Assembly: GCA_964454865.1 (NCBI GenBank)
Contig: CAYVTQ010000003.1
Span: forward strand, 1 to 52,813
Origin: an uncultured Methanosarcinales archaeon
GTDB taxonomy: Archaea; Nanobdellota; Nanobdellia; Woesearchaeales; GW2011-AR4
Direction of reading: 5' to 3'
Length of the DNA: 52,813 bases
Under the pieces are notes generated by a model that ran no database searches, was not told where the DNA came from, and saw nothing but the letters and a program-made list of their open reading frames with translations. Below are positions 1 through 47,439 of the stretch, piece after piece; position 1 is the first letter of the stretch; every line of letters starts with the position of its first letter. The position numbers and the translations under genes were made by a program.

Positions 1-840
1 GATAAAACTGCCATCTCCGCGCCAGTAGCCTTTAATGAATTCTGCCTGTTTTTCACAAGACTCAAGCATAAGCCACTTCGGAAGTTTCTTGTTTTTAGCA
101 CCCTTTCCAAATTCCTGCTTGAACAGCCTTGCTGCTAGAGTGCTGCATAACACTAAAGTTACTCCGCCCTTGTATTCCTTATATTCCAGCGGGGCTTTTC
201 CGAATAATTTTTCCAGCAAATCGCTTGCATCCTCAAGATAATCCCTTTCATTTTTGTTAAATGTGAAAGATAAATAATTCTCATTTATTACAGAGCCTTC
301 TGCCATATAATAGCCAACAAGCCTGAAAAAGTCCTTGTCAGTATCAACTTTAAATTCTAAGGTCTTTGACTGATGCCTGCCCCTTCCTATCTTTATTGAG
401 AAAAATCGGCTGTCTTTGGATATTACTGTTCTGTCAATGGGAATCGCAGCATAATCATTTTTGCTTAATTGCGCCGCTTCTATCCATTCAGGCTTAAATT
501 CGCTGTTTTTATAATCTCGGACACAAATATTTGATTGAAAATACTTTGTGTCCTCCTGACATAATGGCGGAATAATTGATTGATTATTTACTTCCGCCAT
601 TATATATTCAGCTTTCTTTCTTTTAACAGCAAGCACCGGATGCCCGCCGGTTATTTTGATTTCCTGCCTTGTATCCCCGTAATAATTGATTGTGCATAAT
701 ATCCCGCTGTGCTTTCTTCTTTGCAGTTCGTAAACTTTTTTGTATGAGCCTGTATGGGTTAATACAATATCCCCAACTGCGACATCTTCAATTTTCTTTG
801 TGCCTTCCAGAGTCTTTACAGGCGCTCCTTTTGTAAAGCA
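1..840 (-). other. Intein 2 in SufB (at least 280 aa, C-terminus outside window) with LAGLIDADG domain
   Basis: Starts CFTKGAPVKTLEG right after extein ...VHYIEG, where SufB normally continues with C-T-A-P. Block B is ITGGHPVL. LAGLIDADG motifs: LVGYYMAEGS and IKGYWRGDGS. No HN/extein junction appears before position 1. Confidence 0.8.
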
Positions 841-2715
841 GCCTTCAATATAATGCACTGAGCTTCCCTCATCGCAGATTATCAATGTCCTTTCAAACTG
901 CCCCATATTCTGGGCGTTGATTCGGAAATACGCCTGCAAAGGCAGGTCCACTTTCACGCCTTTTGGAACGTAAATGAAGCTGCCTCCGCTCCAAACTGCG
1001 CTGTTCAAAGCTGCAAACTTGTTGTCATTATTGGGGATTACAGTGGCAAAATATTTCTTTACAAGCTCAGGATATTCCCTTAATCCGGAGTCCATATCAA
1101 GGAAGAGCACGCCAAGCTTTTCCAGGTCCTCCCTTATCTTGTGGTAGACAACTTCTGAATTATGCACTATTACGCCCTCAGCAACAAAATTATGATAATT
1201 TTCTACTTCAATATCATAGACAGGCTCTGTTCCCATTGGTTTTATGGATTCAATTTTTGCAAAACCTATAAAGTCATTTGCATGCTTTTTAAATGACGTA
1301 TTTTTTGCGCTTTTATAGCTATGATAATATTTCTTCCTGCCTAATCTCAAAAACCTTTTTTCTGATTTACAAGGTATTATATCTGCATTGCCGCTTAACT
1401 GGAGCCTAAAGGCAGTTAACATTCTGCCCTTATCATAGACGTGCTTGGACTGAAATTCATTAATATTAGAAGCAGCAATTCCGCAAAGCATTGCCAGCAT
1501 TCTTGTATCTTCAAGAATTTGCTTATTCACACTCGTAAAAACGATATCATGGTTTTTGGGATGGTCTCTGACATAGCCGTCTGAATCCAAGTAACCTCCT
1601 AAAAACGCTAATATCTGATTTTTTGGCAGTGAAAATAACCATTCTGGAATTTTTTTTGTTTTTGCTTTGCCTCCAAAGCCTATCTTTTCTATAAAGTTTG
1701 ATAAAATACTGGAGTAAATCGTTACCCTATCATTATCAACTACTGAGGCTTCAATGCTGAAAATATTTTGAATGATTCCAGCTAATTCTTCTCGAAGCTG
1801 TTTGTCCTGCATTGGAATTGCTATCTCAATTCTGGCTTTCTTTTTTTCTTTATGTAAAAAGCCATCGCCTAAATATAAGCCAAGAAACCACATCAAGTCT
1901 TCATTAGTATATTCTGGAATTTTTACTTTATTATGCCTATAAGACGCTTTTTCAGGCTCTGGCAATTGATAAGGCTTGCCTTCATAAGGCAATTGTTTAA
2001 CTATAGCAACAAGGTCTCCTACTTTTAAATCTGACAGATAGCGCCATTCTTTTTTGTAGCGGCCCCTTCTTTTTTTCTCTTTTTTGTCGTGCATTAAAGC
2101 CAAAAACGGGTGGTTAATTGTTGTCTTTATTTTTCTAGTTCCTATATTTATCTCAAATACAGGTCTTTCGCCTTTGCACGCCACATCCTTTACTAAAGAA
2201 GGTTTTATCTCTCCGCTAGCTTCATCATAAGCGAAAACCTTGTCTCCTTTTTTTATAGACCTAATATCTTTTGGTCCGGAGGGATTGGTAAACACTTTTG
2301 TATCTCCTGTAAGGCACTCATATTGCGCACCAACTCCTGCCAGAAACTTTCTTTCGGCCTCAGGAATCCCAAGCCTGTCAAATGTCTTCTTGATGTATTC
2401 AGGAACATCATCCCAGTTTTTCTCTGTCTTTTCGCTGGGTTTTATGTAATAATAGATATTGTCAAAATCTATAGTGCTTAAATCCGCGCCCCATGAAGGC
2501 ATTGCCTTTTTCCAGAAAATCTCAAGGCTTTGGAGCCTGAAGTCAAGCATCCATTGCGGCTCATTCTTCATTTTGGAGATTTCCTCAACTATTTCTTTTG
2601 TCAATCCTCTCTTTGACTTGAATATATAGTCCTCTTTATCTGAGAAAGAGTATTTGCTGTAATCTTTTACAAATGCTTCCGCGCTTTCTTCTGTTTTTAG
2701 AATCTGCTCTGCCAT
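1..2715 (-). CDS. sufB: Fe-S cluster assembly protein SufB, N-terminal part only (runs off window start), interrupted by two inteins
   Basis: Manual minus-strand translation from ATG 2713-2715 (AGGAG about 8 nt upstream). Open for all 905 codons down to position 1. Not in the ORF track because there is no stop in the window. Extein motifs: MPSWGADLSTIDFDNIYYY, FLAGVGAQYE, then SEVVYHKIREDL...VWSGGSFIYVPKGVKVDLPLQAYFRINAQNMGQFERTLIICDEGSSVHYIEG. Confidence 0.9.
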   Translation of the reverse strand, partial: MAEQILKTEESAEAFVKDYSKYSFSDKEDYIFKSKRGLTKEIVEEISKMKNEPQWMLDFRLQSLEIFWKKAMPSWGADLSTIDFDNIYYYIKPSEKTEKNWDDVPEYIKKTFDRLGIPEAERKFLAGVGAQYECLTGDTKVFTNPSGPKDIRSIKKGDKVFAYDEASGEIKPSLVKDVACKGERPVFEINIGTRKIKTTINHPFLALMHDKKEKKRRGRYKKEWRYLSDLKVGDLVAIVKQLPYEGKPYQLPEPEKASYRHNKVKIPEYTNEDLMWFLGLYLGDGFLHKEKKKARIEIAIPMQDKQLREELAGIIQNIFSIEASVVDNDRVTIYSSILSNFIEKIGFGGKAKTKKIPEWLFSLPKNQILAFLGGYLDSDGYVRDHPKNHDIVFTSVNKQILEDTRMLAMLCGIAASNINEFQSKHVYDKGRMLTAFRLQLSGNADIIPCKSEKRFLRLGRKKYYHSYKSAKNTSFKKHANDFIGFAKIESIKPMGTEPVYDIEVENYHNFVAEGVIVHNSEVVYHKIREDLEKLGVLFLDMDSGLREYPELVKKYFATVIPNNDNKFAALNSAVWSGGSFIYVPKGVKVDLPLQAYFRINAQNMGQFERTLIICDEGSSVHYIEGCFTKGAPVKTLEGTKKIEDVAVGDIVLTHTGSYKKVYELQRRKHSGILCTINYYGDTRQEIKITGGHPVLAVKRKKAEYIMAEVNNQSIIPPLCQEDTKYFQSNICVRDYKNSEFKPEWIEAAQLSKNDYAAIPIDRTVISKDSRFFSIKIGRGRHQSKTLEFKVDTDKDFFRLVGYYMAEGSVINENYLSFTFNKNERDYLEDASDLLEKLFGKAPLEYKEYKGGVTLVLCSTLAARLFKQEFGKGAKNKKLPKWLMLESCEKQAEFIKGYWRGDGSFI
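512..609. repeat. Structured short repeat, family 1, copy A (two long hairpins), embedded in frame in intein 2
   Basis: Hand alignment gives near-identity to 19108-19209. Hairpins: GGACACAAATATT...AATACTTTGTGTCC and ATAATGGCGGAATAAT...ATTATTTACTTCCGCCATTAT. Confidence 0.8.
1159..2316 (-). other. Intein 1 in SufB (386 aa) with LAGLIDADG homing-endonuclease domain
   Basis: Starts CLTGDTKV directly after extein ...GAQYE. Block B is TINHPFL. Two LAGLIDADG motifs: FLGLYLGDG and FLGGYLDSDG. Ends FVAEGVIVHN, followed by extein S(+1)EVVYH. The length is exactly in frame (1158 nt). Confidence 0.85.
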
Positions 2716-13105: not shown

Positions 13106-13771
13106 ATGAAAATCGGCTCGATCAAAGATAAAATTCCTGAGGAGTTGTATGAAGCCCTGCTTAGCGAGAAAATAACGGAGATGAGACCTGCCCAGGAAAA
13201 AGCCATCGGTAAAGGCCTTCTGGAAGGAAAGAATCTTCTTGTCTGCACACCAACGGCAAGCGGAAAGACCCTGATTGCGGAGCTGGCGTGCTTCAAGGCT
13301 GTTTTTGAAAAAAGAGGAAAAGCTGTTTACATTGTGCCGCTAAAGGCGCTGGCATCTGAAAAATACAATGATTTCAAAAGAAAATACGGCAATAAGGCAA
13401 AAATTGCGCTGTCAATCGGGGATTCTGACTCTTCGGATTCTTATCTATCTGAATATGATGCAATAATCACCACATCCGAAAAGCTTGATTCCCTGATAAG
13501 GCACAGGATACCATGGCTTGCTGAAGTAAAGGTTGTTGTCGTTGATGAAGTGCATCTTCTCAATGATGCCTCAAGAGGCCCGACATTGGAAATAATCCTG
13601 ACAATACTGATGCAGCTTCTTAAAAAAACCCAGTTTATTGCGCTGTCAGCCACAATAGGCAACCCAAAAGAGCTTGCAGAATGGCTGAATGCGGAATTGG
13701 TCGAGGATGACTGGAGGCCTGTAAAGCTCGAGAAGGGAGTTTATTTCGGAGGGGAGATTGAGTTTCATTAA
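13106..13771 (+). pseudogene. Hel308/Ski2-like helicase, N-terminal RecA1 domain only (truncated)
   Basis: Walker A CTPTASGKT, DEVH box and DWRPVKLEKGVY, then a stop after 221 aa. The roughly 450-500 aa normally following (RecA2, WH and ratchet domains) are absent. A repeat element lies 90 nt downstream. Confidence 0.6.
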
Positions 13772-13860
13772 AGAGCAGCATACCTAATTGGAGTTGCGGC
13801 TAAATAACAAAGGGATTTGGGGCAATAATTCACTATTCTAAATCTTTTTATCGTCAATCC

Positions 13861-14010
13861 TCAATCCGCCTTCGGCATATCTACTGCGAGGCGTCGCTGT
13901 CTGCCACACGCTCCGCCTCGCCATTTATTGAAATCGATTCGAGGCGGAATTTTAATGGCAGTAAAAATTCCGCCGAGTGTATCTTGGTCGCGAGGCGACG
14001 GAATGAATTG
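13861..14010 (+). mobile_element. MITE-like structured repeat, family 2, copy 1 (full length)
   Basis: Aligns by hand to the reverse complement of 23801-23960 and partly to 37036-37137. Imperfect terminal inverted repeat TCAATCCGCC...GACGGAATGA. Internal hairpins GCGAGGCG-N20-CGCCTCGC and GGCGGAATTTT-N9-AAAAATTCCGCC. Confidence 0.7.
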
Positions 14011-14012
14011 AT

Positions 14013-14543
14013 ATGCAACTTCAGAAAGCTAAATCCTTACTTTTCTGCATAATCTTATTAAACGGAGTAATATTAAACGGGTTTATGAATTATTATGGCG
14101 GATTAGGATTGGCAGAGTGTTGTGGTTCCTCAGAATCCCCCACAGGTCCAGAAAGAAGGAGAGGATTTGGCGGCGCTGTGGATGGAATAGAGCTTCTTCT
14201 TGGAATTATCGCTGACGGCATAGTTACAAGCCCCGAAAAGCTTGCGGCTTATGAGCGTGTTGTCAGGAAAAAATACCAATTTATGCTAGATTTTTATTCG
14301 GCTGCTAAATCTGAAATTGCCTATCCATGTGATGAATTATCCCATCCATTATCTGAAACCGGAGATCAGCTGGAAAATCTGTGCCCTGCAATTGATGGTT
14401 TTTTTGCAGAGATAAAAAAGAAGGGCGCAGCTTCCTGGTCAATTGAGGAAAAATTTGGGATTGTCAGCAGGATTTTACAAAAGATAAGGGAGACAGGCAC
14501 TTCTGAATACATTGACAGGATAGGGATTTTGAATCGAGGCTAA
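14013..14543 (+). CDS. Hypothetical protein
   Basis: ORF track only. The ATG sits directly after the repeat element. The stop abuts the pcm stop. Confidence 0.35.
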   Translation: MQLQKAKSLLFCIILLNGVILNGFMNYYGGLGLAECCGSSESPTGPERRRGFGGAVDGIELLLGIIADGIVTSPEKLAAYERVVRKKYQFMLDFYSAAKSEIAYPCDELSHPLSETGDQLENLCPAIDGFFAEIKKKGAASWSIEEKFGIVSRILQKIRETGTSEYIDRIGILNRG

Positions 14544-15274: not shown

Positions 15275-15859
15275 ATGATACTTGGATTAACAGGTTTAAT
15301 AGGCTCCGGCAAAACAACAATAGCTAAATTCTTTTCAGAGCATGGCTTTATTGTGATAGACGCCGACAAGGCAGGGCATGAAATTCTCGAGAATGACGAG
15401 ATAGTGAAAATTGAAGTGATCAATGAATTCGGCGATGATATTCTTGACGGGCTTGGCAATATTGACAGGGAAAAGCTTGGAGACATTGTTTTCGGCAACG
15501 AGCCTATGCTTGAGAAACTTAACAGCCTGCTGCATCCTGTTATCATCAGCAGCATTAAGGGCTCCATCAACAGCTATAAAAAAAACAATAAGACTGATAT
15601 TTTGGTTGAGGCGCCGCTTCTTATCGAGACTGATGCTAAAAATCTAGTTGAAAAAATCATTGTAATAAAATCATCAAAAGAGAATATAATGAAAAGGCTG
15701 CCTGGCAAATATTCAAAAGAAAAGATTGATAAGATAATCAAAAGCCAGATGCCTGTTGAGGAGAAACTGAAGTATGCTGATTTTGTTATTGACAACAACG
15801 GAAGCATAGAGGATGCAAGAAGGCAGGCTGAGGGGATAATTAAAAAATTGGAAAAATGA
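15275..15859 (+). CDS. coaE: Dephospho-CoA kinase, bacterial CoaE type
   Basis: P-loop GLTGLIGSGKTT with typical CoaE length and layout. 4-nt ATGA overlap with carB. Confidence 0.85.
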   Translation: MILGLTGLIGSGKTTIAKFFSEHGFIVIDADKAGHEILENDEIVKIEVINEFGDDILDGLGNIDREKLGDIVFGNEPMLEKLNSLLHPVIISSIKGSINSYKKNNKTDILVEAPLLIETDAKNLVEKIIVIKSSKENIMKRLPGKYSKEKIDKIIKSQMPVEEKLKYADFVIDNNGSIEDARRQAEGIIKKLEK

Positions 15860-18800
15860 CAAAACCAAAGAAAGTTTTAGTTTTAGGAAGCGGAAGCCTG
15901 AAGATAGGACAGGCGGGCGAATTTGACTATTCCGGTTCGCAGTGCCTGAAAGCCCTGAGAGAAGAGGGAATCAAGACAATACTCATCAATCCGAACATCG
16001 CTACTATCCAGACCAGTGAGGGAATGGCCGACAAAATCTATTTTCTTCCCGTAACTCCTTTTTTTGTAGAGAAAGTCATTGAGAAAGAAAAGCCTGACGG
16101 CATAATGCTTTCATTCGGGGGGCAGACTGCGCTTAACTGCGGAGTTGAGCTGGCTGATTCAGGGGCTTTTGAAAAAAATAATGTAAGAGTTTTAGGCACG
16201 CAGATCCAGACAATAAAAGACACGGAAGACAGGGACTTGTTTGTCAAAAAACTCAATGAAGTCAAACTCAAAACTCCTAAAAGCAAGGCTGTTGAAAGCA
16301 TAAATGAGGCGATAAAAACTGCCAGTAATATAGGCTATCCTGTCATGATAAGGGCAGCCTATGCCTTAGGGGGCCAGGGCTCCGGAACTGCTGAAAATGA
16401 GGAAAAGCTCAGAGAGATCGCAAAGAGGGCATTCTCATATTCAAAGCAGATACTTGTCGAGGAGTATCTTGGAGGGTGGAAGGAGATAGAGTATGAAGTT
16501 GTCCGCGATTCTTATGACAACTGCATCACTGTCTGCAACATGGAAAATTTTGACCCGATGGGCATACATACAGGGGAGAGCATTGTTGTTGCGCCTTCGC
16601 AGACTTTGACAAACTCGGAGTACCACAAGCTGAGGGAGATTTCAATAAAAGTCATCAGGCATCTTGGCATAGTGGGGGAGTGCAATATACAATATGCGCT
16701 TGATCCAAATTCCGAAGATTACAGGATTATCGAGGTTAATGCCAGGCTGTCAAGAAGCTCTGCATTGGCGTCAAAGGCAACAGGATACCAGCTGGCTTTT
16801 GTCGCCGCAAAGCTGGCTTTGGGATATTCTCTTGCAGAGCTTGAAAATTCAATCACAAAAGCGACAAAATCGTGCTTTGAGCCCGCGCTTGATTATATCG
16901 TTGTCAAGATGCCAAGATGGGACATGGAGAAATTCAGGAATGTAAGCTTTACAATAGGCAGCGAGATGAAATCTGTCGGAGAGGTAATGGCAATAGGGAG
17001 GAAATTTGAAGAAGCGCTCCAGAAGGCAATAAGGATGCTTGGAATGGGGTTTCACGGGCTGGTTGCCAACAATACAGGTCTCAGCGGTATTGACAATATC
17101 AAAAACGAGCTGAGGAATCCCACTGACAAAAGGCTGCTGGTGATAGTGGATGCGCTTAAGAAAAATTTCAGCGTTGATGAGATTCATGAATTGACAAAGA
17201 TTGACAGGTGGTTCCTGTATAAGATAGAAAATGCCCTTGAAACTGAAAGGGAGCTGAAAAAATATGATATGGGAAGCATTCCAAAAGACGTTCTGAGGAA
17301 TGCCAAAGAGCAGGGATTTTCGGATTTCCAGATTGCAAAGATAACAAGCAGCGAAAAATCAGATTTGCAGAAAAAGGCGCTTGAAGCCAGAAATCTGAGG
17401 AAGAAATACGGCATTTTGCCTTGCATAAAGCAGATTGACACGCTTGCTGCTGAATATCCCGCAAAGACCAACTACCTTTACATGACCTATAACGGCAGCG
17501 GCGATGACATATCATTCGGCAATAAAAAAAGCATAATTGTACTAGGCTCGGGGGCTTACAGGATAGGATCTTCTGTGGAGTTTGACTGGTGCTGCGTAAA
17601 TGCAGCTTCCACAGCAAAGGAGATGGGATACAACTCCATCATGATAAACTGCAATCCTGAAACAGTAAGCACGGATTATGACATCTGCGACAGGCTTTAT
17701 TTTGAAGAATTGACCTTTGAGAGGGTGCTCGATATTTATGAGAAGGAAAATCCTGACGGGATAATCATCTCGATGGGAGGGCAGGTTCCGAATAATCTTG
17801 CAATGAAGCTGCACAGGCAGAATGCCAGGATTCTGGGGACGGGCCCGTTAAGCATTGACAGCGCGGAAGACAGGCATAAGTTTTCAGCTTTGCTGGACAG
17901 ATTGGGAGTGGACCAGCCTGAATGGACAGAAGCCAAGTCAATGAACGAAGCAGAGAAGTTTGCAGATAAAGCAGGATATCCTGTCTTGATAAGGCCGTCT
18001 TATGTGCTCAGCGGAGCTGCAATGAGCGTCGCATCAAACAGGAAAGAGCTGGAAGATTACCTGGAAAAAGCCGCAAAAGTCTCAAAAGAGCATCCTGTCG
18101 TCATTTCGAAATTCATAACAAATGCAAAAGAGATTGAGATAGACGCGGTTGCCGATAAAGGCAGCATTTTAATTTACGCAATATCAGAGCATATCGAGAA
18201 TGCAGGAGTGCATTCAGGCGACGCCACACTGGTTTTGCCGCCGCAATTCACATACATTGAAACGATAAAGCGCATCAAAGGGATTGCAAAAAAAATAGCA
18301 AAATCGCTTGAGATAACAGGCCCTTTCAATATCCAGTTTATTGCAAAACAGAATGACATAAAGGTGATAGAATGCAACCTCCGCGCGTCAAGAAGCTTCC
18401 CGTTTGTTTCGAAAGTCACAAAGCATAATTTCATCGGCATTGCGACGAAGGCAATTATGGGCTCTGCGCCGAAGCAGAAATACAACACCCTGGACTTTGA
18501 TTATGTTGGAGTCAAGTCCCCTCAATTTTCATTCTCAAGGCTCCATGGGGCAGACCCGCTGCTGTCGGTTGAGATGGCGTCGACAGGGGAAGTGGGGTGC
18601 ATGGGAGATGACATTTATGACGCATTTTTGAAATCAATTTTATCAGTTGGGTTCAAGATGCCTAAAAAAACAATCCTGCTTTCGACAGGCCCGATAAAAG
18701 ACAAGGCATACCTCCTGGAAAGCATAAGAAAGCTCTACGAGATGGGATTTGAGCTTTATGCAACAAAGGGGACATCTAAATTTCTTGAGAAAAACGGCAT

Positions 18801-19065
18801 AAAAGCTGCAATGCTGCACTGGCCCCTTCGGAAGAAAGAGCCCAATGCGCTGACATACATACAGGAAGGAAAAATAGATCTGGTGATAAATATCCCGAAA
18901 ACTCTTGAAGAGGCGGAGCTGGAGAATGATTATATAATAAGAAGAAAGGCAGTGGACTTTAATGTGCCATTGCTGACAAATGCGCAGCTTGCCAAATTGT
19001 TTGTCGAGTCCATTTCAAATAAGAAAATTGAGGAGCTGGAGATTAGAAGCTGGGAGGAGTATTAG
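15856..19065 (+). CDS. carB: Carbamoyl-phosphate synthase large subunit
   Basis: GQAGEFDYSGSQ, duplicated ATP-grasp halves and a C-terminal MGS-like domain. 1069 aa. Confidence 0.95.
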   Translation: MTKPKKVLVLGSGSLKIGQAGEFDYSGSQCLKALREEGIKTILINPNIATIQTSEGMADKIYFLPVTPFFVEKVIEKEKPDGIMLSFGGQTALNCGVELADSGAFEKNNVRVLGTQIQTIKDTEDRDLFVKKLNEVKLKTPKSKAVESINEAIKTASNIGYPVMIRAAYALGGQGSGTAENEEKLREIAKRAFSYSKQILVEEYLGGWKEIEYEVVRDSYDNCITVCNMENFDPMGIHTGESIVVAPSQTLTNSEYHKLREISIKVIRHLGIVGECNIQYALDPNSEDYRIIEVNARLSRSSALASKATGYQLAFVAAKLALGYSLAELENSITKATKSCFEPALDYIVVKMPRWDMEKFRNVSFTIGSEMKSVGEVMAIGRKFEEALQKAIRMLGMGFHGLVANNTGLSGIDNIKNELRNPTDKRLLVIVDALKKNFSVDEIHELTKIDRWFLYKIENALETERELKKYDMGSIPKDVLRNAKEQGFSDFQIAKITSSEKSDLQKKALEARNLRKKYGILPCIKQIDTLAAEYPAKTNYLYMTYNGSGDDISFGNKKSIIVLGSGAYRIGSSVEFDWCCVNAASTAKEMGYNSIMINCNPETVSTDYDICDRLYFEELTFERVLDIYEKENPDGIIISMGGQVPNNLAMKLHRQNARILGTGPLSIDSAEDRHKFSALLDRLGVDQPEWTEAKSMNEAEKFADKAGYPVLIRPSYVLSGAAMSVASNRKELEDYLEKAAKVSKEHPVVISKFITNAKEIEIDAVADKGSILIYAISEHIENAGVHSGDATLVLPPQFTYIETIKRIKGIAKKIAKSLEITGPFNIQFIAKQNDIKVIECNLRASRSFPFVSKVTKHNFIGIATKAIMGSAPKQKYNTLDFDYVGVKSPQFSFSRLHGADPLLSVEMASTGEVGCMGDDIYDAFLKSILSVGFKMPKKTILLSTGPIKDKAYLLESIRKLYEMGFELYATKGTSKFLEKNGIKAAMLHWPLRKKEPNALTYIQEGKIDLVINIPKTLEEAELENDYIIRRKAVDFNVPLLTNAQLAKLFVESISNKKIEELEIRSWEEY

Positions 19066-19083
19066 GTAATACAATACTTGTAA

Positions 19084-19112
19084 GATTACAATTTATGAAA
19101 TAAATTGTAATC
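19084..19112. terminator. Perfect 12-bp hairpin downstream of carB
   Basis: GATTACAATTTA-tgaaa-TAAATTGTAATC. Its 3' arm overlaps the first bases of repeat copy B. Confidence 0.4.
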
Positions 19113-19209
19113 TCGGACACAAATAATTGATTGAGAATACTTTGTGTCCTCCTGATATAGTGGCGGAATAATTATTGCTCAATTATTTAGTTCCGCCACT
19201 ATATATTCT
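19108..19209. repeat. Structured short repeat, family 1, copy B
   Basis: About 90 percent identical to 512-609 outside one loop (hand alignment). Supplies the last codons and stop of the 484-aa ORF on the minus strand. Confidence 0.8.
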
Positions 19210-20637
19210 TGTTGGATTGTAAGCAGGAATCGTTAATTTTGAGAGTGAAGATTCATAAAGACTTGGAGGTATTGCTCCAACTAATCTCCTGACCAGACTA
19301 TCACCGGCAAGTTCTTCTTTCCTCCTGCTTACTTCTCTTTTGAATGACCTAGCTTCTTCTTTTCCCAATGGATGAACCTCCATAAGTTTTGCAAGGAAAT
19401 CGTTAGTATCATCTGCGTCATGGCGTGGCTTTTCCAGCCTATTCAACATCAAGTCTGGGTCTATATTAACAATAATAGCCCCATCTTCAGTGGGCTGGTA
19501 ACAATAATGAACAACTTGCCTTTCTTCCTTATCTTCAAATAATCCATATCCTTGTGCAGTTCCAAGATATCTGGCAACCGCCAAGGAATCCAATGGCAAA
19601 TCTCTCAGAGACTTAACCCATGTCCTTAGATAGTATACATCACCATTATCAGTTTCAACTACTTTTAAATTAGGGGTTATCCGAGGTGTACCTTCTAAAT
19701 AAAGATTTTCCAAAGCAGCCAACAAATAAGGTTCCGGTAGGAATAAAAATTTTTTCATATCGATTTCGACGCTTTGGTGGCTGCCTGTCAGCAAGCCCAA
19801 GTAATGATGCTTATTTATATGCCCTCTGTACTTGCTAAGTTGAGGCGCGCTAAATTCCTCGTCATACGTTCTTCCAACCCTCATAACAATAACAAATGAG
19901 TCCTGTATTAGGTAGACTACGTTTGGCTCCTTAGTCATGCCTTTCCGAAAATTGGTCCTGTATTGGACTTCAAAAGGAGTTATTCTGCCATCATCAGTTT
20001 TTGCAACAGCGATAATATCTTTTGGAAGCGCACGCTTATATCTATCCACAACTTCTTCCAATGGTGCTTGCTTCCAAACAAAACTTTCACGAGTAACCCT
20101 GTCATGAGAAGCGTCAAGACCTCCAGTGTTCCAATCAATTAAAAATTTTAAACCATCATATCCTTTAAAAATATCCGCAGGGGATATTGGCTTAGGGCCA
20201 CTAAAAAATCCCATTTCCCTGACAGAGCTGAAAGCATGGCTATCATTAAATTGAGGGTTAAGATTTGTTAAAGAATGGCTTTTAATTGTTTCAGCGATTC
20301 TGCGCACCAATTCATCAGTGTTTTCTGTATTGCCATTGCCGGCATGATATCTTCCAATTATGATACTTGCGTTTGGAGCAATAAATCCGCCATTAAACTG
20401 GATTCCTCCGTTAACCACCAAGTCTGCAGGCTGACCAAATGATGTAGTGTCAACTAGAGTTATCTTTTCTCTAGGCTGAGGCAAAGCTGAAGCTACCTTT
20501 TCTGCCAAATAATCCGGCAAAAATATCCTTACTTCAGTTTTGCCTATACCCATCTTTCCGCCATCAAAGGCGACCCCCACTTCTTCAAAGGTGCGAATCT
20601 TATCCGCAACGCTTGATTCTATAAGTGCTTCCCCCAT
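19183..20637 (-). CDS. Hypothetical protein (484 aa)
   Basis: Long ORF with no family recognised. The C-terminal ...IYSGGTK-stop is encoded by the family-1 repeat. Confidence 0.6.
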   Translation of the reverse strand: MGEALIESSVADKIRTFEEVGVAFDGGKMGIGKTEVRIFLPDYLAEKVASALPQPREKITLVDTTSFGQPADLVVNGGIQFNGGFIAPNASIIIGRYHAGNGNTENTDELVRRIAETIKSHSLTNLNPQFNDSHAFSSVREMGFFSGPKPISPADIFKGYDGLKFLIDWNTGGLDASHDRVTRESFVWKQAPLEEVVDRYKRALPKDIIAVAKTDDGRITPFEVQYRTNFRKGMTKEPNVVYLIQDSFVIVMRVGRTYDEEFSAPQLSKYRGHINKHHYLGLLTGSHQSVEIDMKKFLFLPEPYLLAALENLYLEGTPRITPNLKVVETDNGDVYYLRTWVKSLRDLPLDSLAVARYLGTAQGYGLFEDKEERQVVHYCYQPTEDGAIIVNIDPDLMLNRLEKPRHDADDTNDFLAKLMEVHPLGKEEARSFKREVSRRKEELAGDSLVRRLVGAIPPSLYESSLSKLTIPAYNPTRIYSGGTK

Positions 20638-20752
20638 TTTTAGCCTATTCCTTATAGATTATATAACTAATATTTATTTCTTGCATTTTAAATGCCTATT
20701 TAAACCTTTCTAATTTTTTAACTTTTAAGTAGTAAAATAATTATCCATCACA

Positions 20753-20762
20753 TTTAAATATA
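20753..20762 (+). promoter_or_regulatory. TATA-box candidate upstream of ribD
   Basis: ACATTTAAATATAAC, the same 14-mer core as upstream of ribB. About 60 nt from the ATG. Confidence 0.4.
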
Positions 20763-20822
20763 ACCTTCTCCTGAACAATTCAATTTTGGGGTGGAATTTG
20801 ATTGATATCTCATAAAAAATAC

Positions 20823-21872
20823 ATGGATTTGGCCTTAAAGCTTGCTGAAAAGGGCAGGGGCACTACAAGCCCCAACCCGATGGTCGGCTGCGTTGTTGTG
20901 AAAAGAGGCAAAATAATAGGAAAAGGCCATCATAAGAAAGCCGGAGAGGACCATGCCGAGGTTATAGCTATAAATCAGGCGGGCAAAAAAGCCAACAATG
21001 CCACTTTGTATGTCAATCTGGAGCCGTGCTCGCACTGGGGCAAGACGCCGCCCTGCACTGAGAAGATAGTTGACTCCGGCATAAGGGAAGTCATCATAGG
21101 CTGCCATGACCCAAATCCCCTTGTTGAAGGCTTTAAGGAATTGAAATTCCGCGGAATAAAGTCAAAAATCGGAATTCTTGGAGAGGAAGCTGAAAAGCTG
21201 AATGAAGTGTACATGAAATACATGAAAAAGAAGATACCTTTTGTCACAATAAAGGTAGCCATGAGCGCGGACGGCAGGATTGCAACTTCCACCGGAGATT
21301 CCAGGTATATAACAAGTGTCGAAGCAAGAAAGATTGTGCATAAATTGAGGACTGAAGCTGACGCAATTCTGGTGGGAGTCAACACAGTCATAAGGGACAA
21401 TCCCCAATTGACCCCCAGGTTAGTCGAAGGAAAAAACCCTTTGAAGATAGTTGTCGACAGCACGCTAAAAATGCCGGATAAATGCAACCTGATGAAGGAG
21501 CCTTCAAAGCTCCTTATAGCCACCACTTCCAAGGCGCCTAAGGCAAAGCTCAACAGCCTGCACCAGAAAGGAGTGAGCATTGTTGTGCTGAAGCAAAAGG
21601 ACGGCATGGTTGACCTGAGGCAGCTTATGGAAGAGCTGGGAAAGAGAGAAATCACGAGCGTGATGATTGAAGGCGGAACAGAAGTCAACAGCTCTGCAAT
21701 AAAGGCTGGCATTGCCGACAAGATAATCATCTTTGCAGCGCCGAAGATAATAGGAAACGGCAAGGGCGCAATCGGAAACCTTGGCATAACGAAGATAGAC
21801 AAGGCGATAAAGCTCAAGGATATCAGGACAGAAAAAGCTGGAAACGACCTTATGATTGAGGGGTATCTTTAG
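20823..21872 (+). CDS. ribD: Bifunctional riboflavin biosynthesis protein RibD (deaminase/reductase), bacterial type
   Basis: CDA zinc motif HAEVIAI...PCSHWGKTPPC, then a reductase domain. Start set at the ATG giving MDLALKLAEKG. Confidence 0.9.
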   Translation: MDLALKLAEKGRGTTSPNPMVGCVVVKRGKIIGKGHHKKAGEDHAEVIAINQAGKKANNATLYVNLEPCSHWGKTPPCTEKIVDSGIREVIIGCHDPNPLVEGFKELKFRGIKSKIGILGEEAEKLNEVYMKYMKKKIPFVTIKVAMSADGRIATSTGDSRYITSVEARKIVHKLRTEADAILVGVNTVIRDNPQLTPRLVEGKNPLKIVVDSTLKMPDKCNLMKEPSKLLIATTSKAPKAKLNSLHQKGVSIVVLKQKDGMVDLRQLMEELGKREITSVMIEGGTEVNSSAIKAGIADKIIIFAAPKIIGNGKGAIGNLGITKIDKAIKLKDIRTEKAGNDLMIEGYL

Positions 21873-21920
21873 ATATCCTCACCCACAAAAATAGGTATGT
21901 TACTTGTGGCTTCGGGAATA

Positions 21921-21966
21921 GTCGACAACAAAATTACATAAACCCCAAATTATTTTGTTGGCCGAC
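21921..21966. terminator. Hairpin between convergent ribD and the 169-aa ORF
   Basis: GTCG-a-CAACAAAAT ... ATTTTGTTG-gc-CGAC (9+4 bp). Confidence 0.45.
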
Positions 21967-21983
21967 TACATTCTGGATTATCA

Positions 21984-22493
21984 CTAGCGATAATAATAAA
22001 ATCTTCTGCCTTTTACTCTTGTCTTAGGCTTTACTTCTTTGTCCCTCTCTTTCCTAGTAGAATATGGATTTTCAACAACCATATCAAATTTAGAGGATAT
22101 GTCTTCCACATCTTTTCTTAAGAGATTAGGGTTAAATATCAAAACATTTACATCAACATTTCTTCCCAATAGCTCCTGAGAACTATTATTGCCTGCTCCA
22201 ATATCCGCATTAGGAGTTACCATATGCAAAATTAAGTAGTTGTATACTGATAAAGGTCGTTCCAGAAGATGCACCGGGCGCTCAAATTCATCTGTAAAAT
22301 CCGCTCTAAACCCCTTACTTGCCATTGCTTCAATCGATTTTTGTGAAAAATAAGTTTTGCCATGGTCTGCCGAGTTTAAAGAAATGTTATGCTCAACAGT
22401 AGGAGAATGCACAGCTACAACAATTGGCTTTTGCTTATGTGCATCATAATCATTTAATAATTTCCCTATCCTCCGTTCAATCGTTAGGTACAT
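21984..22493 (-). CDS. Hypothetical protein (169 aa)
   Basis: ORF track. No family recognised. Confidence 0.5.
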   Translation of the reverse strand: MYLTIERRIGKLLNDYDAHKQKPIVVAVHSPTVEHNISLNSADHGKTYFSQKSIEAMASKGFRADFTDEFERPVHLLERPLSVYNYLILHMVTPNADIGAGNNSSQELLGRNVDVNVLIFNPNLLRKDVEDISSKFDMVVENPYSTRKERDKEVKPKTRVKGRRFYYYR

Positions 22494-22603
22494 GGCAGAA
22501 TTAATCCGATGACAACTATTTATTCTTTTCTATTTTTACCACTTTATAATAGCAACAAACCGAAAGCTTTATAAACCATTATCTGCTAAACAACCATAAT
22601 ACA

Positions 22604-22613
22604 TTTAAATATA
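22604..22613 (+). promoter_or_regulatory. TATA-box candidate for ribB (near-leaderless)
   Basis: ACATTTAAATATAAG lies 21-30 nt upstream of ATG 22634. A second BRE/TATA-like site, CCGAAAGCTTTATAAA, is at 22560-22575. Confidence 0.45.
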
Positions 22614-22633
22614 AGCGATTCTGCCATACGCAG

Positions 22634-23305
22634 ATGAACGGCGTATTGCAGTTTTCAACAATAAAGGATGCTATAGCAGACATAAAATCAGGCAAGTTTG
22701 TTATAGTCATCGATGATGAGGGCAGGGAAAACGAGGGGGATTTAGTCATCGCTGCAGATAAAGCAACTCCCGATAAGATAAATTTTATGCTGAAGCACGG
22801 CAGAGGACTTATATGCATGCCGGTCATCGGGAAAAGGCTGGATGAGCTTAAACTGCCTCAAATGGTCATGCCAAATGGGCATACCGGGCATTGCGCATTC
22901 ACAATCTCAATTGATGCCGCGAAGGGCACGACAACAGGTGTGTCTGCCTTTGACAGGGCAGCGACCGTCAAGGCTGTTTTGGATCCAAGGACAATGCCTG
23001 AAGAGCTGAAAAGGCCGGGGCATATGTTCCCTTTAAGATACCAGGATGGCGGAGTGCTGATAAGGCAGGGGCATACAGAAGCATCCGTTGACCTTGCAAT
23101 GCTCGCGGGATTATACCCTGCTGCCGTAATATGCGAGATTTTGGATGAAGACGGCAGGGTTGCTAAATACGGCAGGCTGATGGAGTTTTCAAAAATACAC
23201 AGCATCAGGATTATTTCAGTTAACGACTTGATTGAATACAGGAAAAATGGAGAGCAGAATATCATGGCTGATAGCGGGAATATCGTTGCTGGCAGCGATA
23301 GCTAG
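22634..23305 (+). CDS. ribB: 3,4-dihydroxy-2-butanone 4-phosphate synthase
   Basis: Motifs VIDDEGRENEGDLVIAADK, HGRGLICMP and GHTEASVDL. Confidence 0.9.
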   Translation: MNGVLQFSTIKDAIADIKSGKFVIVIDDEGRENEGDLVIAADKATPDKINFMLKHGRGLICMPVIGKRLDELKLPQMVMPNGHTGHCAFTISIDAAKGTTTGVSAFDRAATVKAVLDPRTMPEELKRPGHMFPLRYQDGGVLIRQGHTEASVDLAMLAGLYPAAVICEILDEDGRVAKYGRLMEFSKIHSIRIISVNDLIEYRKNGEQNIMADSGNIVAGSDS

Positions 23306-23696: not shown

Positions 23697-23800
23697 GGGT
23701 TTTCTATTGATTTATTTGTAATATTTTGATGCTGATTGTTTTATCTCTTAATTTATCACAATTAATAACAGCTGCGCATGCTTAATTTTCTAAGGTGCCA

Positions 23801-23960
23801 TAATTCAATCCGTCGCTTCGCGACAATTCTACACTCGGCGGAATTTTTACTGCCAAGAAAATTCCGCCTCGAATTTATCTCAATGGTTTTAATAAATTCG
23901 CGAGGCGGAGCGTGTGGCAGACAGCGACGCCTCGCACTATAATTGCCGAAGGCGGATTGA
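23801..23960 (-). mobile_element. MITE-like structured repeat, family 2, copy 2 (full length, inverted orientation)
   Basis: The reverse complement aligns end to end with 13861-14010. TIR is TCAATCCGCC...GACGGATTGA (9 of 10). Confidence 0.7.
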
Positions 23961-24061
23961 GAATAGATCCCACTCAAAAGCCCGTTGCCTATTTTTTAAA
24001 CCGCGGCTAAATGAAAGAAATAAAAATAATATTTATAAATAAATAGATTCTAAATGTAATA

Positions 24062-26048: not shown

Positions 26049-29000
26049 CTAAATGCCCCCGGAATACCTTGAGTTGACTTTGGTGTCCTGAGGAGCTGCT
26101 TTAGCTTCCTGCCTTGTTTTTTCTGCTTTTTCCTCCTCGATTGACTTTGCTTTGTCCCCGACTTCCCTGAATGCTGTGCATAATGCATAGTATTTCTCAA
26201 TTCCTTTTAAGTTCCCTCCGGTATAGAACGGGACATCGTCAAACAAAATGCAGGCTTCATCATAATCCAAAGTGTCGGCGAATATTATCGGAGCTGGATT
26301 AGGCTCGTTAGGCTTCATACTGGGGCTGCCATACTGCATGTTCCTCTGCAGCTCGGTGAATTTGTCGTTTTCATTCAGCAATAACGGCCTTTGCAGGAGG
26401 TTTTTTGACCTCAAGCCTATATTGACTCCTACAGTCTTTTTTGCAGTAGGGGGATTTGTCTCTGCCATATTTATCTTGAATGAGATTAAATAGAGGTATT
26501 TATCCACATTTTTGCCCTGATCATCAACAGCAGTATAGGGCTGCTTTGTAGCCTTGATGAAAGCGCCGATATTCGGATAGCCATCAGGAGTTGCTGTGAA
26601 GACAAATCCTTCGTCTGAAGGGGGAAGATCTATTTTCGCCAATTCGCATAATTTTGACTCAAACAAATCCTGCTCCAAAACTATTCCCAAAGCGCTGTTC
26701 TTTTCCATTACCTTCATCCATTCCTTCATCACATCATCCCCTAGGAAATAGGAATATGTATCGCTCAGGAACCTTCCGGTTGGGGCTGATTTTCCCAGTA
26801 TGTCGTCCAGAGCAGCAAAGAATTTCTGCGAGTCCCACTGCCCCCTTGTCAGGAAGTTCCTGCCTTCGGCGTATTTGTCGTGAAAGGTATTCCATGCGGA
26901 TTTTTGATTATCAGTCAATTCTGTTAGCTTGCCATCATCACCGAATTTCTTAGGAGGCTTTCCGTAATTTGGACTGCCCGGAATTAATAAAGTTGGATCG
27001 TGCTGTATTCCTGAAATCTTTATTATTTGATGAGCCTCTCCATCTCGAACTGCACTCATAGTCAAAGTAGCCCTTCCATCAGAGCCCAGCTCGTAATTTG
27101 CATATGTGGGGTCAGTTACTAGTGTATTTGTCTCATCAAAAGCTGATCCCTTTGGCAGCCTTACACTTATAGCCGCAACATAATCATTTCCGCTGGCGTC
27201 CCTTTTCACAGTCCTTGCAACAGACTCTTCTGCTAACACAGTATCACTCCAAAAGCCGTTTGCATCCTGCTTTGGAGGGGTGTTTTTTCCGCTGTAAATT
27301 ATTATTGTTTTTCCCTGGTCAGTCATTTGCTTGACAGCTTTCCCACCCATTACCGCTGTTATTTTCCCATTCGCGAGCAAAACATAATCGTCTTTTGAGC
27401 CTATTTTTGAGAATTTCTTTTTATCGTCTGTTTCTGCTGCAGGAGAAGAATCAAAGTTATTTGATGTTACAGATGTTATTCCAAGTTTGGCGGCTTCTCT
27501 CAAAGCGTCGTCTTTAACAAACTCATCGCCGGGCATCTTTGCATACTCGGCTCCATTCATCTTTATTGACCTTAACATGCCTCTGTCGTCTCTGACATTC
27601 AGATCGACACTTTCAATTTTTGAATAATCAGCAGCGTGATAAAATCTTGCTTTGGGACCAGATTCTATAACTTTGTTTACTCCTGGCTTATATACTTCTG
27701 TTTTTCTTCCTATCTCATTGCCGGCAGAATCTCTCCAAATAGTTTCCAAAGTCATTTGGGCTTCGCTTGAGCTTGGATTATTTTCCAAACCTTTGGCGTT
27801 CTTTATTGTTGATATATACTCTCTTCCCTGAGCAATATGCAGAAAGCTTCTTTCTATTATTGTGTCCTTATCTTCGGATGTTAAGATAGAGATTTGGGCT
27901 AATTTTCCTCCGCCAGGCATATCTACATTAGGAATAAGCTGAAGCGTTGCTTTTCCCTCTTTCAATGGAATTTTATTGCTGCTTCCGTCCCAATTATCCT
28001 TATCAATTTCCTCCGGATTAAGAAGCCTTGCGTCATATGCGAATGATGTTTCAGCAGTTCCATCTTTTTTTGTTAATGTCCTAATACCATCCTTATCAGG
28101 CTTTGAAATAGTTATTGAAGTTATTACCGCATTTTGCGCTGTATCCACCGTCAATACATTCGAGCTGAAATCAGGCTGCTCTCCGGGAGGCTGCGCTGCT
28201 CCCACTACTTGGCCTGGCGCTGATGGAGGGAGCCGAATTCCCCTTATATTGGCCTGCAGCTCCTGATAGCTCTTGGCGCTTGCATCAAATATCATGACAT
28301 GGCCTGGCTTTACAGCCTTAAATTGATTTTTTAATTCAGGAAATCTCGAAGCAAGAGACAGGTATTCTGCTTCTGTCAAGGCAGTTCCCTTATTTGCGCC
28401 TTCAAAGCTGTAATAGATTGTGCCTGATGTTGGATTTGCGATGCCATCTTTCCCCCCGACTTTAACCTGCAATTGGCTAAGCACTCCTTTAAGCTCTGCA
28501 GAAGTCTCAATCCCTTGGGGCTGTCTTTGCTTATCTTTTTCCGCTTCCTTTTCCCTGCGCTGCCTGTCGCGCTCTTGCTTTAGATCGTATTCTGCTTTCT
28601 TTTTATCAATATATTCCTGAACTGCATCCGAATCCTTATTTTTTAAATTAATTAATTCTTCCCGCGTTACATATTTCCTTAGCTCCCTAATCCCGTCTTC
28701 TGTATTTTCCTCTGCAACATTCATAGCCACAGCAGCAAAATCGTCCCCGAATTCATTTTCAAGCTGAGCCATTTTGGCATAATCATTTTTATCAATTCCT
28801 ATCCCTCTTATGTAGGCATCATAATCATCAGGGTCAACTTTATTTTCGCCTGCATATAGTTCTACTATGCCTTCTGTTGTTATTTCGCTGTTAATTGCGC
28901 GATACTGCTGTGCTATCTTATCATTAACGCCATTGGATTCTAATTGTTTCTTGTCCAACCCTTTCAAAAGAGGATTGGGCCATTCTTGAATTGGGGCTTG

Positions 29001-30437
29001 GGCTGCTCCTGACGGCGGGGCTGCTGCTCTTTTTGCCAGCAGGGCTTTGTTTATTGCCTTTGCTGTTTTCTCGCCCACTTTTCCGTCACTTGTTAAAGGA
29101 TTGTTCTGCTCATCCTTATTTTTGCTCTGGAAATCCTTAACAGCAGCGCCTATTTTTTCAGGAGTGCTTAAATCAGCATAGCCAAGCTCTTTAAGCGCTT
29201 CAATTAAATTATTATCAGTGGCAGGTATCGTGCCTGCGCCTGACGGGACTGAAAGCTCTACTGCAGGTTTTCCCGCAGGAGCCTGCTGCTTTGCCTTTGC
29301 CTCAGCCAGCGATTTCGTTAAAGCCTGCAAGTCTGGATGGCTTTTTTTTGTTTCAGCATCAAAAAGCCTATCAACGCTTCCGCCAACACTCCTAAATCCT
29401 ACCGGATTATCGCCATTAAAATAAATTATTCTGCCATCGGCACCAGTATAAAACCTGTCATAAGCATTGCCCCCAATGTTTCCCGGCTTAATTGTAAGGG
29501 TGAATTTAGAAGTCGTTGCGCCTATTTGGACATCAACTGATGGTATGTCTGTAATGATAGCTGCGCCGCCTCCCTGCCCCAGTGGCACTCCATCACCTTG
29601 TTTGGTAGTTGCCGGCCCAACAGCTCCAGCAGATCCTTTTGTAATCTCATTGTTAATAGCAGGATCCAAATTTGGGATTAAATTAACATAGCTTAGAGCT
29701 AAGGCATATTTTTGCTTCTTCTGTTCAGGATCTTGAGTTGCTCTTACTTGCTCTAAATATTTGTTAAAATCATGTTCAAGATTAGCTTTTGCATCAATGC
29801 CTCTATCAATCGCCTTTTTGTGATATTCCATTGCTGTTGCATAATCTTCCTTACCCCTGTAACTAACACCTATATAAGGATATACACCAGGATCATCCCT
29901 AATTTTTAAGGCTTTCTTGTAGAATTCTATTGCTTCATCATATTGTCTTGAATTAAATTTAGAAACCCCAGTTCGAAAATTTAAGTCGTAAGCTTCTTGA
30001 ATTGTTAAAGGAGCGGTTTGTGAGCCGAATAGTATCTGGTTAGCTTGCGCTTGTGTTATTGTTTTGCCATTTATAGAAGCCCTTCCAGATTTAGTTACTT
30101 CAGAGATTTTTTGTGTCAATTCAGCGGGCGATTTCGCAGCCAGCAGACTTTGAATGAGCTTTACATCTTCATCATAAATTCTATCATCACCTTTGAATTC
30201 CGAAGTCCAATCTTTCCTACCTGATTCGCTATTAGGGTACACCTTTACTTCTGGTTTTTCTTTCTCATAATTCCATTGTAAAAATACTTCATCATCAATA
30301 CCCCAGTTACTAAAAACCAGCTTTACAATATCTGAAGCGCCTGTAGTTGTTGTTACTTGTCCACTTGTTGTCTGAGAATATACACTAATCATAATAATAA
30401 AAATACATGCCATAATCGCCAAAATCTTCTTTATCAT
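26049..30437 (-). CDS. Giant secreted protein (1462 aa): Sec signal, TPR, PG-binding-like module, coiled coil
   Basis: N-terminal signal MIKKILAIMACIFIIMISVYS/QT. TPR-like YDEAIEFYKKALKIRDD...YATAMEYHKKAIDRG. LGY...AVKDFQ...DGKVGEKT pattern. KE/RQ-rich coiled coil. Confidence 0.8.
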   Translation of the reverse strand: MIKKILAIMACIFIIMISVYSQTTSGQVTTTTGASDIVKLVFSNWGIDDEVFLQWNYEKEKPEVKVYPNSESGRKDWTSEFKGDDRIYDEDVKLIQSLLAAKSPAELTQKISEVTKSGRASINGKTITQAQANQILFGSQTAPLTIQEAYDLNFRTGVSKFNSRQYDEAIEFYKKALKIRDDPGVYPYIGVSYRGKEDYATAMEYHKKAIDRGIDAKANLEHDFNKYLEQVRATQDPEQKKQKYALALSYVNLIPNLDPAINNEITKGSAGAVGPATTKQGDGVPLGQGGGAAIITDIPSVDVQIGATTSKFTLTIKPGNIGGNAYDRFYTGADGRIIYFNGDNPVGFRSVGGSVDRLFDAETKKSHPDLQALTKSLAEAKAKQQAPAGKPAVELSVPSGAGTIPATDNNLIEALKELGYADLSTPEKIGAAVKDFQSKNKDEQNNPLTSDGKVGEKTAKAINKALLAKRAAAPPSGAAQAPIQEWPNPLLKGLDKKQLESNGVNDKIAQQYRAINSEITTEGIVELYAGENKVDPDDYDAYIRGIGIDKNDYAKMAQLENEFGDDFAAVAMNVAEENTEDGIRELRKYVTREELINLKNKDSDAVQEYIDKKKAEYDLKQERDRQRREKEAEKDKQRQPQGIETSAELKGVLSQLQVKVGGKDGIANPTSGTIYYSFEGANKGTALTEAEYLSLASRFPELKNQFKAVKPGHVMIFDASAKSYQELQANIRGIRLPPSAPGQVVGAAQPPGEQPDFSSNVLTVDTAQNAVITSITISKPDKDGIRTLTKKDGTAETSFAYDARLLNPEEIDKDNWDGSSNKIPLKEGKATLQLIPNVDMPGGGKLAQISILTSEDKDTIIERSFLHIAQGREYISTIKNAKGLENNPSSSEAQMTLETIWRDSAGNEIGRKTEVYKPGVNKVIESGPKARFYHAADYSKIESVDLNVRDDRGMLRSIKMNGAEYAKMPGDEFVKDDALREAAKLGITSVTSNNFDSSPAAETDDKKKFSKIGSKDDYVLLANGKITAVMGGKAVKQMTDQGKTIIIYSGKNTPPKQDANGFWSDTVLAEESVARTVKRDASGNDYVAAISVRLPKGSAFDETNTLVTDPTYANYELGSDGRATLTMSAVRDGEAHQIIKISGIQHDPTLLIPGSPNYGKPPKKFGDDGKLTELTDNQKSAWNTFHDKYAEGRNFLTRGQWDSQKFFAALDDILGKSAPTGRFLSDTYSYFLGDDVMKEWMKVMEKNSALGIVLEQDLFESKLCELAKIDLPPSDEGFVFTATPDGYPNIGAFIKATKQPYTAVDDQGKNVDKYLYLISFKINMAETNPPTAKKTVGVNIGLRSKNLLQRPLLLNENDKFTELQRNMQYGSPSMKPNEPNPAPIIFADTLDYDEACILFDDVPFYTGGNLKGIEKYYALCTAFREVGDKAKSIEEEKAEKTRQEAKAAPQDTKVNSRYSGGI

Positions 30438-30488
30438 GCCGAATGCAGCTCCAAAATTATTGCTTTTTTTCTCATTTTCCTTCCCATC

Positions 30489-47412: not shown

Positions 47413-47439
47413 GCCATTTACCTACTTGGAGTAGTGAAA

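Follow-up and report, generated by a model that had tools for sequence, protein, structure and literature searches.

The 52,813-nt archaeal contig CAYVTQ010000003.1, analyzed in its entirety and called the window below, begins with a partial sufB gene (1-2715, minus strand; 904 codons open) that carries two inteins, and within the second of these (SufB intein 2; 1-840, minus strand) a short two-hairpin repeat is read in frame. This repeat is one member of a family (family 1) whose copies lie at unrelated loci, share sharp ends and terminal inverted repeats, and are flanked by TA. We consider it very likely that family 1 is a non-coding, non-autonomous DNA transposon, or MITE (for miniature inverted-repeat transposable element), of 91 nt (94 nt in a second subtype) that belongs to Woesearchaeota-like DPANN archaea and duplicates TA upon insertion. 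The intein copy (copy A; 512-602, plus strand; 91 nt, TAATCTCGGAC...TTCCGCCATTA; nhmmer score 93.5, E 4e-27) is an exact 93-nt insertion relative to orthologous inteins. The second copy in the window (copy B; 19108-19201, plus strand; 94 nt) is intergenic.

The original prediction, made from the window alone, had noted a two-copy repeat with two hairpins and suggested either a MITE or an element excised from RNA. The repeat is where it was said to be: the likeness is between window stretches 509-612 and 19105-19212, and the window has two occurrences of the core pattern, compared to none in 100 shuffles. Identity, estimated by hand at about 90% outside one loop, comes to 84/95 (88%) in a gapped alignment of the whole elements. 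The proposed search for further copies gave approximately 20 copies or derivatives in the window, two other metagenome-assembled genomes (MAGs) and several metagenomes. A genome scan added copies from L015 (JACPJQ01) and L002 (JACOZO01), both Woesearchaeota MAGs, and a metagenome scan gave 22 loci, 15 of them real, with ~17 copies in metagenome contigs overall; a profile search of all collected sequences gave 21 strong matches, only two of which are in the window. The flanks of the copies are unrelated, placing them at unrelated loci, and the neighboring genes are archaeal core genes; the elements in L021 and L024 are identical yet have different loci and flanks. No family-1 copies were found in viral contigs, where the matches to two patterns were all due to chance, among them an unrelated palindrome in L049 that resembles an operator.

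Full copies have common sharp ends, TA/TAATSTCGGAC...TTCCGCCAYTA/TA (slashes mark the element boundaries), and the copies cease to be alike at a left-hand TATAAT and a right-hand AYTATA, both times abruptly. The element measures 91 or 94 nt, apart from variants of 90, 92 and 83 nt. The ends form imperfect 22-nt terminal inverted repeats (512-533 and 581-602 in copy A, both given on the plus strand), for which 14-17 of the 22 positions match in all 14 distinct copies, compared to 6.2 +/- 2.1 in shuffles, 0/5000 of which reach 16. TA is present 3´ of the element in 18/18 copies and 5´ in 17/18, the exception being copy B, which has a degenerate TG on the left (19106-19107) and TA on the right (19202-19203). 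We placed the boundaries of copy A where the likeness among the 14 distinct copies ends. The left end is as first proposed, while the right end, initially set at 609, was 5-7 nt too far and is at 602; the TATTC that lies past the TA of copy A is flank rather than element, since its TTC is the Glu (GAA) codon conserved in orthologous inteins. Family 1 therefore has several of the features by which MITEs are recognized: 83-94 nt with no coding capacity for a transposase, multiple copies at unrelated sites, terminal inverted repeats, and a TA duplication at one site. The copies at unrelated loci, sharp ends, inverted repeats and TA flanks bear out the MITE option of the original prediction.

Four derivatives have forms typical of transposon decay: a copy with an internal deletion (L022 10440-10495), a mini form consisting of hairpin 1 only (L022 8246-8300), a full copy whose hairpin 1 loop contains a 51-nt twin-hairpin insert (L022 11774-11924), and a chimera in which the right half is joined to a second repeat, family 2 (L036 1710-1935). 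L022, a single contig of 13.7 kb, carries four family-1 forms. In L022 and L036, foreign sequence meets family 1 at one shared point, just 5´ of GATTGAAAATAC, which may be a hotspot for insertion or recombination.

Evidence for insertion comes from comparison of the filled site in the window with empty sites in orthologs. Copy A is read in frame inside the intein immediately after block B (ITGGHPVLAVKR), as had been predicted, and accounts for 31 codons (511-603, minus strand; peptide IMAEVNNQSIIPPLCQEDTKYFQSNICVRDY) in the only stop-free frame of the six. A word-indexed search gave four SufB orthologs spanning the site, and an exhaustive HMMER search added more; loop length was then measured in 150 homologs between a 22-residue anchor preceding and a 24-residue anchor following the 31-residue stretch. 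Compared to 31 extra residues in the window, the SufB-hosted orthologous inteins have 0 at this spot (n = 14, one of which has -1: P0001, P0003, P0006, P0007, P0011, P0013, P0014, P0015, P0017, P0020, P0021, P0022, P0025 and P0028), a typical ortholog reading KRTKAEY/KNTEWKPEW across the empty site. The absence of a homologous peptide in these 14 orthologs, which the original prediction had named as the check to be made, identifies the stretch as a true insertion. At the DNA level, the ortholog L038 reads AAA TTT GAA TCT AAA AAT, and the window minus 93 nt reads AAA GCT GAA TAT AAA AAC.

The size of the insertion bears on the target duplication. Because the sufB frame continues on both sides, only a length divisible by three can have been added, which by comparison with the orthologs is 93 nt; as this equals the 91-nt TAAT...ATTA plus 2, one TA was duplicated (left TA, 510-511; right TA, 603-604). 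A 95-nt element inserted without duplication (0 bp) is ruled out, as it would shift the sufB frame. Target duplications of TAT (3 bp) or TATA (4 bp) also were considered and fit only about half of the copies.

Among more distantly related inteins, hosted by other proteins, the equivalent loop ranges in length from -9 to +34 residues, a Cys-rich insert often being responsible. Given that loop length is naturally variable in related inteins, the element landed in a permissive loop. The Cys-rich insert is itself of note: it comprises 20-34 residues with several CxxC-like spacings, is present in many related inteins of other host proteins, and lies at exactly the loop after block B that is occupied by the MITE here (P0026, P0032, P0043, P0045, P0048, P0051, P0054, P0121, P0159 and others). 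These inserts are possibly metal-binding.

We propose that a transposase acting in trans, with a DDE enzyme of the IS630/Tc1-mariner type as the most likely candidate, would bind the inverted repeats and, by a presumed cut-and-paste mechanism, insert the element at a TA dinucleotide that becomes duplicated. Copy A would have entered the TA in codons ...GAA TA/T AAA... of SufB intein 2, an event likely survivable by three coincidences: 93 nt is a multiple of three, the only stop-free frame was hit, and the loop is permissive. The site is predicted to be a polar surface loop of naturally variable length between block B and the next strand. The gene would have stayed open and kept the insertion as 31 passenger residues, and SufB intein 2 presumably still splices. 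Copy B would be an ordinary intergenic insertion that by chance replaced the last few codons of the neighboring gene. The TA duplication is the signature of IS630/Tc1-mariner-type transposases and agrees with bacterial MITEs such as RUP and Correia (PMC2229807). Since no partner transposase was found, this attribution is drawn only from the TA duplication and the inverted repeats.

Several observations weigh against this model. The TA duplication is seen in one filled/empty comparison, with orthologs of only 57-61% protein identity, and no second empty site emerged from an all-against-all comparison of the loci; the flanking TA in all other copies could formally belong to the element. The right flank is biased, with nWTC after the TA in 9/18 copies (for example TATC, CATC, AATC and ATTC), and the left flank has no mirror-image bias; a symmetric TA target does not predict a one-sided bias. 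The nWTC bias may reflect an asymmetric target preference or what is left of an originally longer right end; the TTC beside copy A is the conserved Glu codon of the intein and is thus target-derived. Neither the window nor the neighbors examined yielded an autonomous element or a transposase with matching ends: Pfam scans of 30 window proteins and of 10 neighbors of the copies in L020 and L022 gave no transposase, and no solo element ends flanking a gene were detected. Finally, compensated changes in the hairpins, described below, go beyond what a simple DDE model with inverted repeats calls for and hint that pairing itself is maintained.

The original prediction had also suggested that the element tolerates, or exploits, coding contexts. 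Copy A is the only intragenic copy among ~18. The others are intergenic, often tens of nt from gene ends, in both orientations and beside starts as well as stops, and a few, copy B included, extend over the final codons of a gene. One of the six frames is stop-free, only in the 91-nt subtype (4/14 distinct copies), and the open frame is lost in 10/14; the stop-free frame is the one read in intein 2. With one open frame in six and one intragenic copy in ~18, the in-frame copy is a rare survivor and not a habit of the family. Furthermore, a search of 5.8 billion proteins for other in-frame copies gave no candidate, none having as many as three 5-residue words in common with the element peptide. 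The notion that the family exploits coding contexts thus found no support, and the preferred reading of the in-frame copy is that it survived selection on sufB, not that the family makes use of such a property.

We examined the two hairpins for evidence of maintained pairing. In copy A, hairpin 1 (519-553, plus strand) has the stem GGACACAAA (519-527) / TTTGTGTCC (545-553), and hairpin 2 (560-604, plus strand) the stem TATAATGGCGGAA (560-572) / TTCCGCCATTATA (592-604), whose 3´ arm is the right end of the element. Both predicted hairpins, GGACACAAA/TTTGTGTCC and TATARTGGCGGAA/TTCCGCCAYTATA, are present in the two window copies, and the A/G difference noted at the base of hairpin 2 is indeed matched by T/C opposite, giving A-T in copy A and G-C in copy B. 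Each hairpin consists of one terminal repeat and an internal inverted copy of that repeat, and hairpin 2 alone looks like a minimal TA-flanked foldback. Relative to shuffled sequence, the fold has z values of -6.3 to -7.3 as RNA, on either strand, and -7.2 to -8.6 as DNA.

Covariation was tested on the 14 distinct copies. In hairpin 1, 98% of cells are paired and there is no variation, an invariance that is uninformative, as the search pattern included the 3´ arm; the L022 8246-8300 derivative, which was not selected by the pattern, has the stem GAACACAAA/TTTGTGTTC, a compensated change in hairpin 1. In hairpin 2, the pair of alignment columns 55/94 is G-C in six copies, A-U in five and unpaired in three, with the two states spread over the subtypes, and pair 57/92 has one compensated A-U. 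The covariation score is 0.071 versus 0.048 in shuffles, 13/500 of which reach it, and is above most slid controls. Long-range pairing of one end with the other was rejected as a maintained structure: there are no compensated changes, and column 94 covaries with column 55, not column 5. The claim of stem covariation accordingly has some compensatory support, from two or three pairs, and was overstated in its strength. Pairing within each hairpin seems to be maintained, as far as this thin evidence goes, and the covariation cannot separate RNA from DNA pairing, or selection from homogenization of a palindrome.

These hairpins raise the question of whether family 1 might instead be an IS200/IS605-type palindrome-associated element, comparable to the haloarchaeal PATEs and moved as single-stranded DNA by a Y1/HUH transposase that would recognize the two subterminal hairpins and insert beside a short target, making no duplication, a possibility that we regard as unlikely. 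Two strong hairpins, one per half, fold well as DNA, their compensated changes preserve pairing, and the flank bias, nWTC after the right TA, is one-sided; in addition, a 93-nt TAAT...ATTATA inserted 3´ of TA without duplication fits the size in the intein equally well. However, one transposase should recognize similar left and right hairpins, and the stems here are unrelated (GGACACAAA versus TGGCGGAA); moreover, hairpin 2 extends right up to the element boundary, where a position 10-20 nt further in would be expected. In addition, the two ends constitute a 22-nt inverted repeat with TA placed symmetrically on both sides, the signature of DDE/TA elements. IS200/IS605-type elements (IS608, ISDra2) have targets of 4-5 nt, and the sole conserved 5´ base pattern in family 1, TA, is shorter. 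Neither a TnpA nor a TnpB gene is beside the copies in the neighbors examined.

A broader alternative, to which we give slightly less credence still, is that the pairing is under selection, either through movement as a folded single strand or through a role at the RNA level, and that the sizes of both main subtypes, divisible by three (93 and 96 nt with TA), together with the open frame are adaptations for the kind of coding-sequence colonization seen for the Rickettsia palindromic elements (RPEs). If so, the intein copy could be an early stage in the gain of a loop domain, comparable to the Cys-rich inserts at the same place.

It is very unlikely that the repeat is primarily a functional structured RNA or DNA module (stabilizing or terminating hairpins, a small RNA, or an intervening sequence), with the intein copy either removed from the mRNA or useful there. 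The folds are very stable on both strands, there is the stem compensation described above, and many copies lie within tens of nt of gene 3´ ends. On the other hand, the copies are in both orientations relative to genes, near starts as well as ends, and the covariation of two or three pairs may reflect few events. No Rfam 15 family matched anywhere in the window at gathering thresholds, and permissive thresholds (E up to 10) gave only chance hairpin hits for the two copies, far below gathering (best SNORA36, 21.8 bits versus 43). Readings as box C/D or H/ACA RNAs were discarded, since conservation of the putative boxes from copy to copy was not seen. The excision from RNA that the original prediction had entertained fares no better: the reading frame is open throughout and translated without a stop, making excision unnecessary. 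An archaeal bulge-helix-bulge mRNA intron (two 3-nt bulges separated by a 4-bp helix, with flanking helices, and junctions 93 nt apart) also was rejected in an exhaustive scan of the pre-mRNA, in which the best candidate of length 93 had a UAUA/UAUA central helix and flanking helices of 1 bp.

That the intein copy is an assembly artefact, with a repeat wrongly threaded into the sufB contig, is highly improbable: the element does break assemblies, four Logan contigs end in copy B, and L019, L036 and L037 have swapped flanks, but a misjoin would not leave the same gene and frame on both sides, add exactly 93 bases and place a TA at either end, and both flanks continue one intein alignment with no residues lost.

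Copy B lies between two convergent genes, a carB-like gene (15856-19065, plus strand) and a 484-aa open reading frame (ORF; 19183-20637, minus strand). As had been predicted, this intergenic copy supplies the last codons, (Y)SGGTK, and the stop of the 484-aa ORF (19183-19203, minus strand), in a frame that differs from that of copy A. Minus the element, the ORF would terminate ...NPTRI(QFIS). One partial homolog was found, which extends six residues beyond the aligned YNPAK; it shows that the C-terminus is not grossly truncated and is otherwise uninformative. Four Logan assemblies, L039-L042 (SRR12113385, SRR12113431, SRR12113383 and SRR12113424), are 99.9-100% identical to window 19177-22638; since all four, which are independent short-read assemblies from one and the same organism, stop 27 nt inside copy B, the repeat breaks assemblies. 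In L019, L036 and L037, one element is joined to alternative flanks, which are either assembly chimeras or products of recombination between copies.

Among the known systems closest to family 1 are RUP of Streptococcus pneumoniae and the Correia/NEMIS elements of Neisseria, which likewise are ~100 nt, non-coding and multicopy, with terminal inverted repeats, a terminal TA and TA duplication, yield transcripts containing long stem-loops, are mostly intergenic, and have size variants due to internal segments. RUP is an established TA-targeting MITE, mobilized by IS630-Spn1 (PMC10969869, PMC2229807). Family 1 differs in its archaeal host, in lacking sequence similarity and an identified partner transposase, and in having ends that each form a hairpin with an internal copy, whereas the RUP and Correia/NEMIS ends pair in one long end-to-end stem. 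In-frame MITE insertions also have precedents in the RPEs, the 107-bp Correia form, ERIC and YPAL (PMC10969869, PMC2229807); the 107-bp Correia form contains open frames and occurs as in-frame fusions with ORFs (PMC2229807).

The RPEs, of ~100-150 nt, share with copy A a palindromic structure and in-frame translation as an extra peptide segment, which for RPEs is compatible with the fold of the host protein (PMC10969869). In-frame genic insertion is the rule for several RPE families, with nearly half of the copies, in contrast to 1/~18 for family 1. Five of the six frames of family 1 have stops, and the host lineages are unrelated. Habitual in-frame copies and a conserved peptide, as would mark an RPE-like family, were not seen here. 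TA duplication, shown for family 1, is uncertain for RPEs (PMC2229807).

Other comparisons are with archaeal elements and with a bacterial one. The PATEs of Haloquadratum are of IS200/IS605 type without inverted terminal repeats, unlike family 1. Sulfolobus SM1 reportedly was attributed by Redder et al. in 2001 to ISC1048, of the IS630 family, providing a link to TA. SM1-SM4 and the PATEs resemble family 1 in being short, non-autonomous and archaeal, and are mobilized in trans by transposases of resident insertion sequences (PMC10969869); they differ in the phylum of the host (DPANN/Woesearchaeota for family 1) and have no sequence relationship to it. CIR of Caulobacter/Brucella also has a terminal TA and 5´ and 3´ halves that fold as independent stem-loops, but, unlike family 1, it has no terminal inverted repeats, contains a methyltransferase site and is bacterial (PMC2229807).

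A second, longer hairpin-rich repeat, family 2, is present at window 13825-14030 (plus strand), 23785-23967 (minus strand) and 37039-37153 (plus strand) and at L016 794-902, L019 671-777, L037 82-188 and L036 1790-1935. It is modular, with a left part (..ATCCGCCTTCGGCA..GCGAGGCGTCGC..CGCCTCGC..) and a right part (GAGGCGGAATTTTAATGGCAGTAAAAATTCCGCCGAG..TCGCGAAGCGACGGAATGAATT) that occur together or separately, and has a recurring tail, ACTTCAGAAAGCTAAAT. A GGCGGAAT/ATTCCGCC hairpin is common to families 1 and 2, and family 2 sometimes adjoins or is fused to family-1 copies. An ORF for a DEAD/Hel308-like helicase (13106-13771, plus strand; 221 aa, DEAD domain only) stops ~55 nt before one family-2 repeat, and a 176-aa ORF without a Pfam match (14013-14543, plus strand) begins inside the tail of that repeat. 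Possibly, the repeat truncated or split the helicase gene.

The rest of the window (39-44% G+C) encodes a split RpoB, RpoA', RpoA'', ribosomal protein S7 and housekeeping enzymes, and no tRNA, Rfam match or transposase was detected in its 52,813 nt. Both SufB inteins are of the LAGLIDADG type. Intein 1 (1159-2316, minus strand; 386 aa, CLTGD...VIVHN) runs from the Cys after GAQYE to ...VIVHN/SEVV; it is absent from the ortholog P0007, and P0012 and P0015 have an intein at the equivalent place. Intein 2 begins with the Cys after HYIEG (HYIEG/CFTKG) and continues past the contig end, which leaves its Hint fold incomplete here. A 40-nt direct repeat (48025-48064 and 48130-48169, plus strand; 83% identical, 105 nt apart) lies inside an ORF without a Pfam match (47434-48822) and is probably the trace of a repeat within the protein. 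On the minus strand (26049-36619 and 48826-52076), three very large ORFs in a row (1462, 1124 and 919 aa) and two others of ~535 aa have essentially no Pfam match, other than a short TPR match in the largest.

An in-frame MITE in an intein loop is an example of a kind of event that is already known. In the reviews consulted, archaeal MITEs are listed for Sulfolobus, haloarchaea and a few other lineages only (PMC10969869). A full-text literature search, judged on titles and abstracts, gave no earlier description of a MITE family in DPANN archaea, and the literature that could be searched likewise held no previous account of an intein with a MITE in it. Family 1 documents a MITE family in Woesearchaeota-like DPANN archaea, and copy A provides a case of three nested selfish or passenger layers, with a MITE in an intein in a probably essential Fe-S assembly gene, a curiosity rather than a new principle. 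In practical terms, the element breaks short-read assemblies of these genomes and could be mistaken for a structured RNA or a lineage-specific protein insertion. From the comparison of inteins, the loop after block B would appear to tolerate insertions of ~30 residues, which may be of interest for intein engineering.

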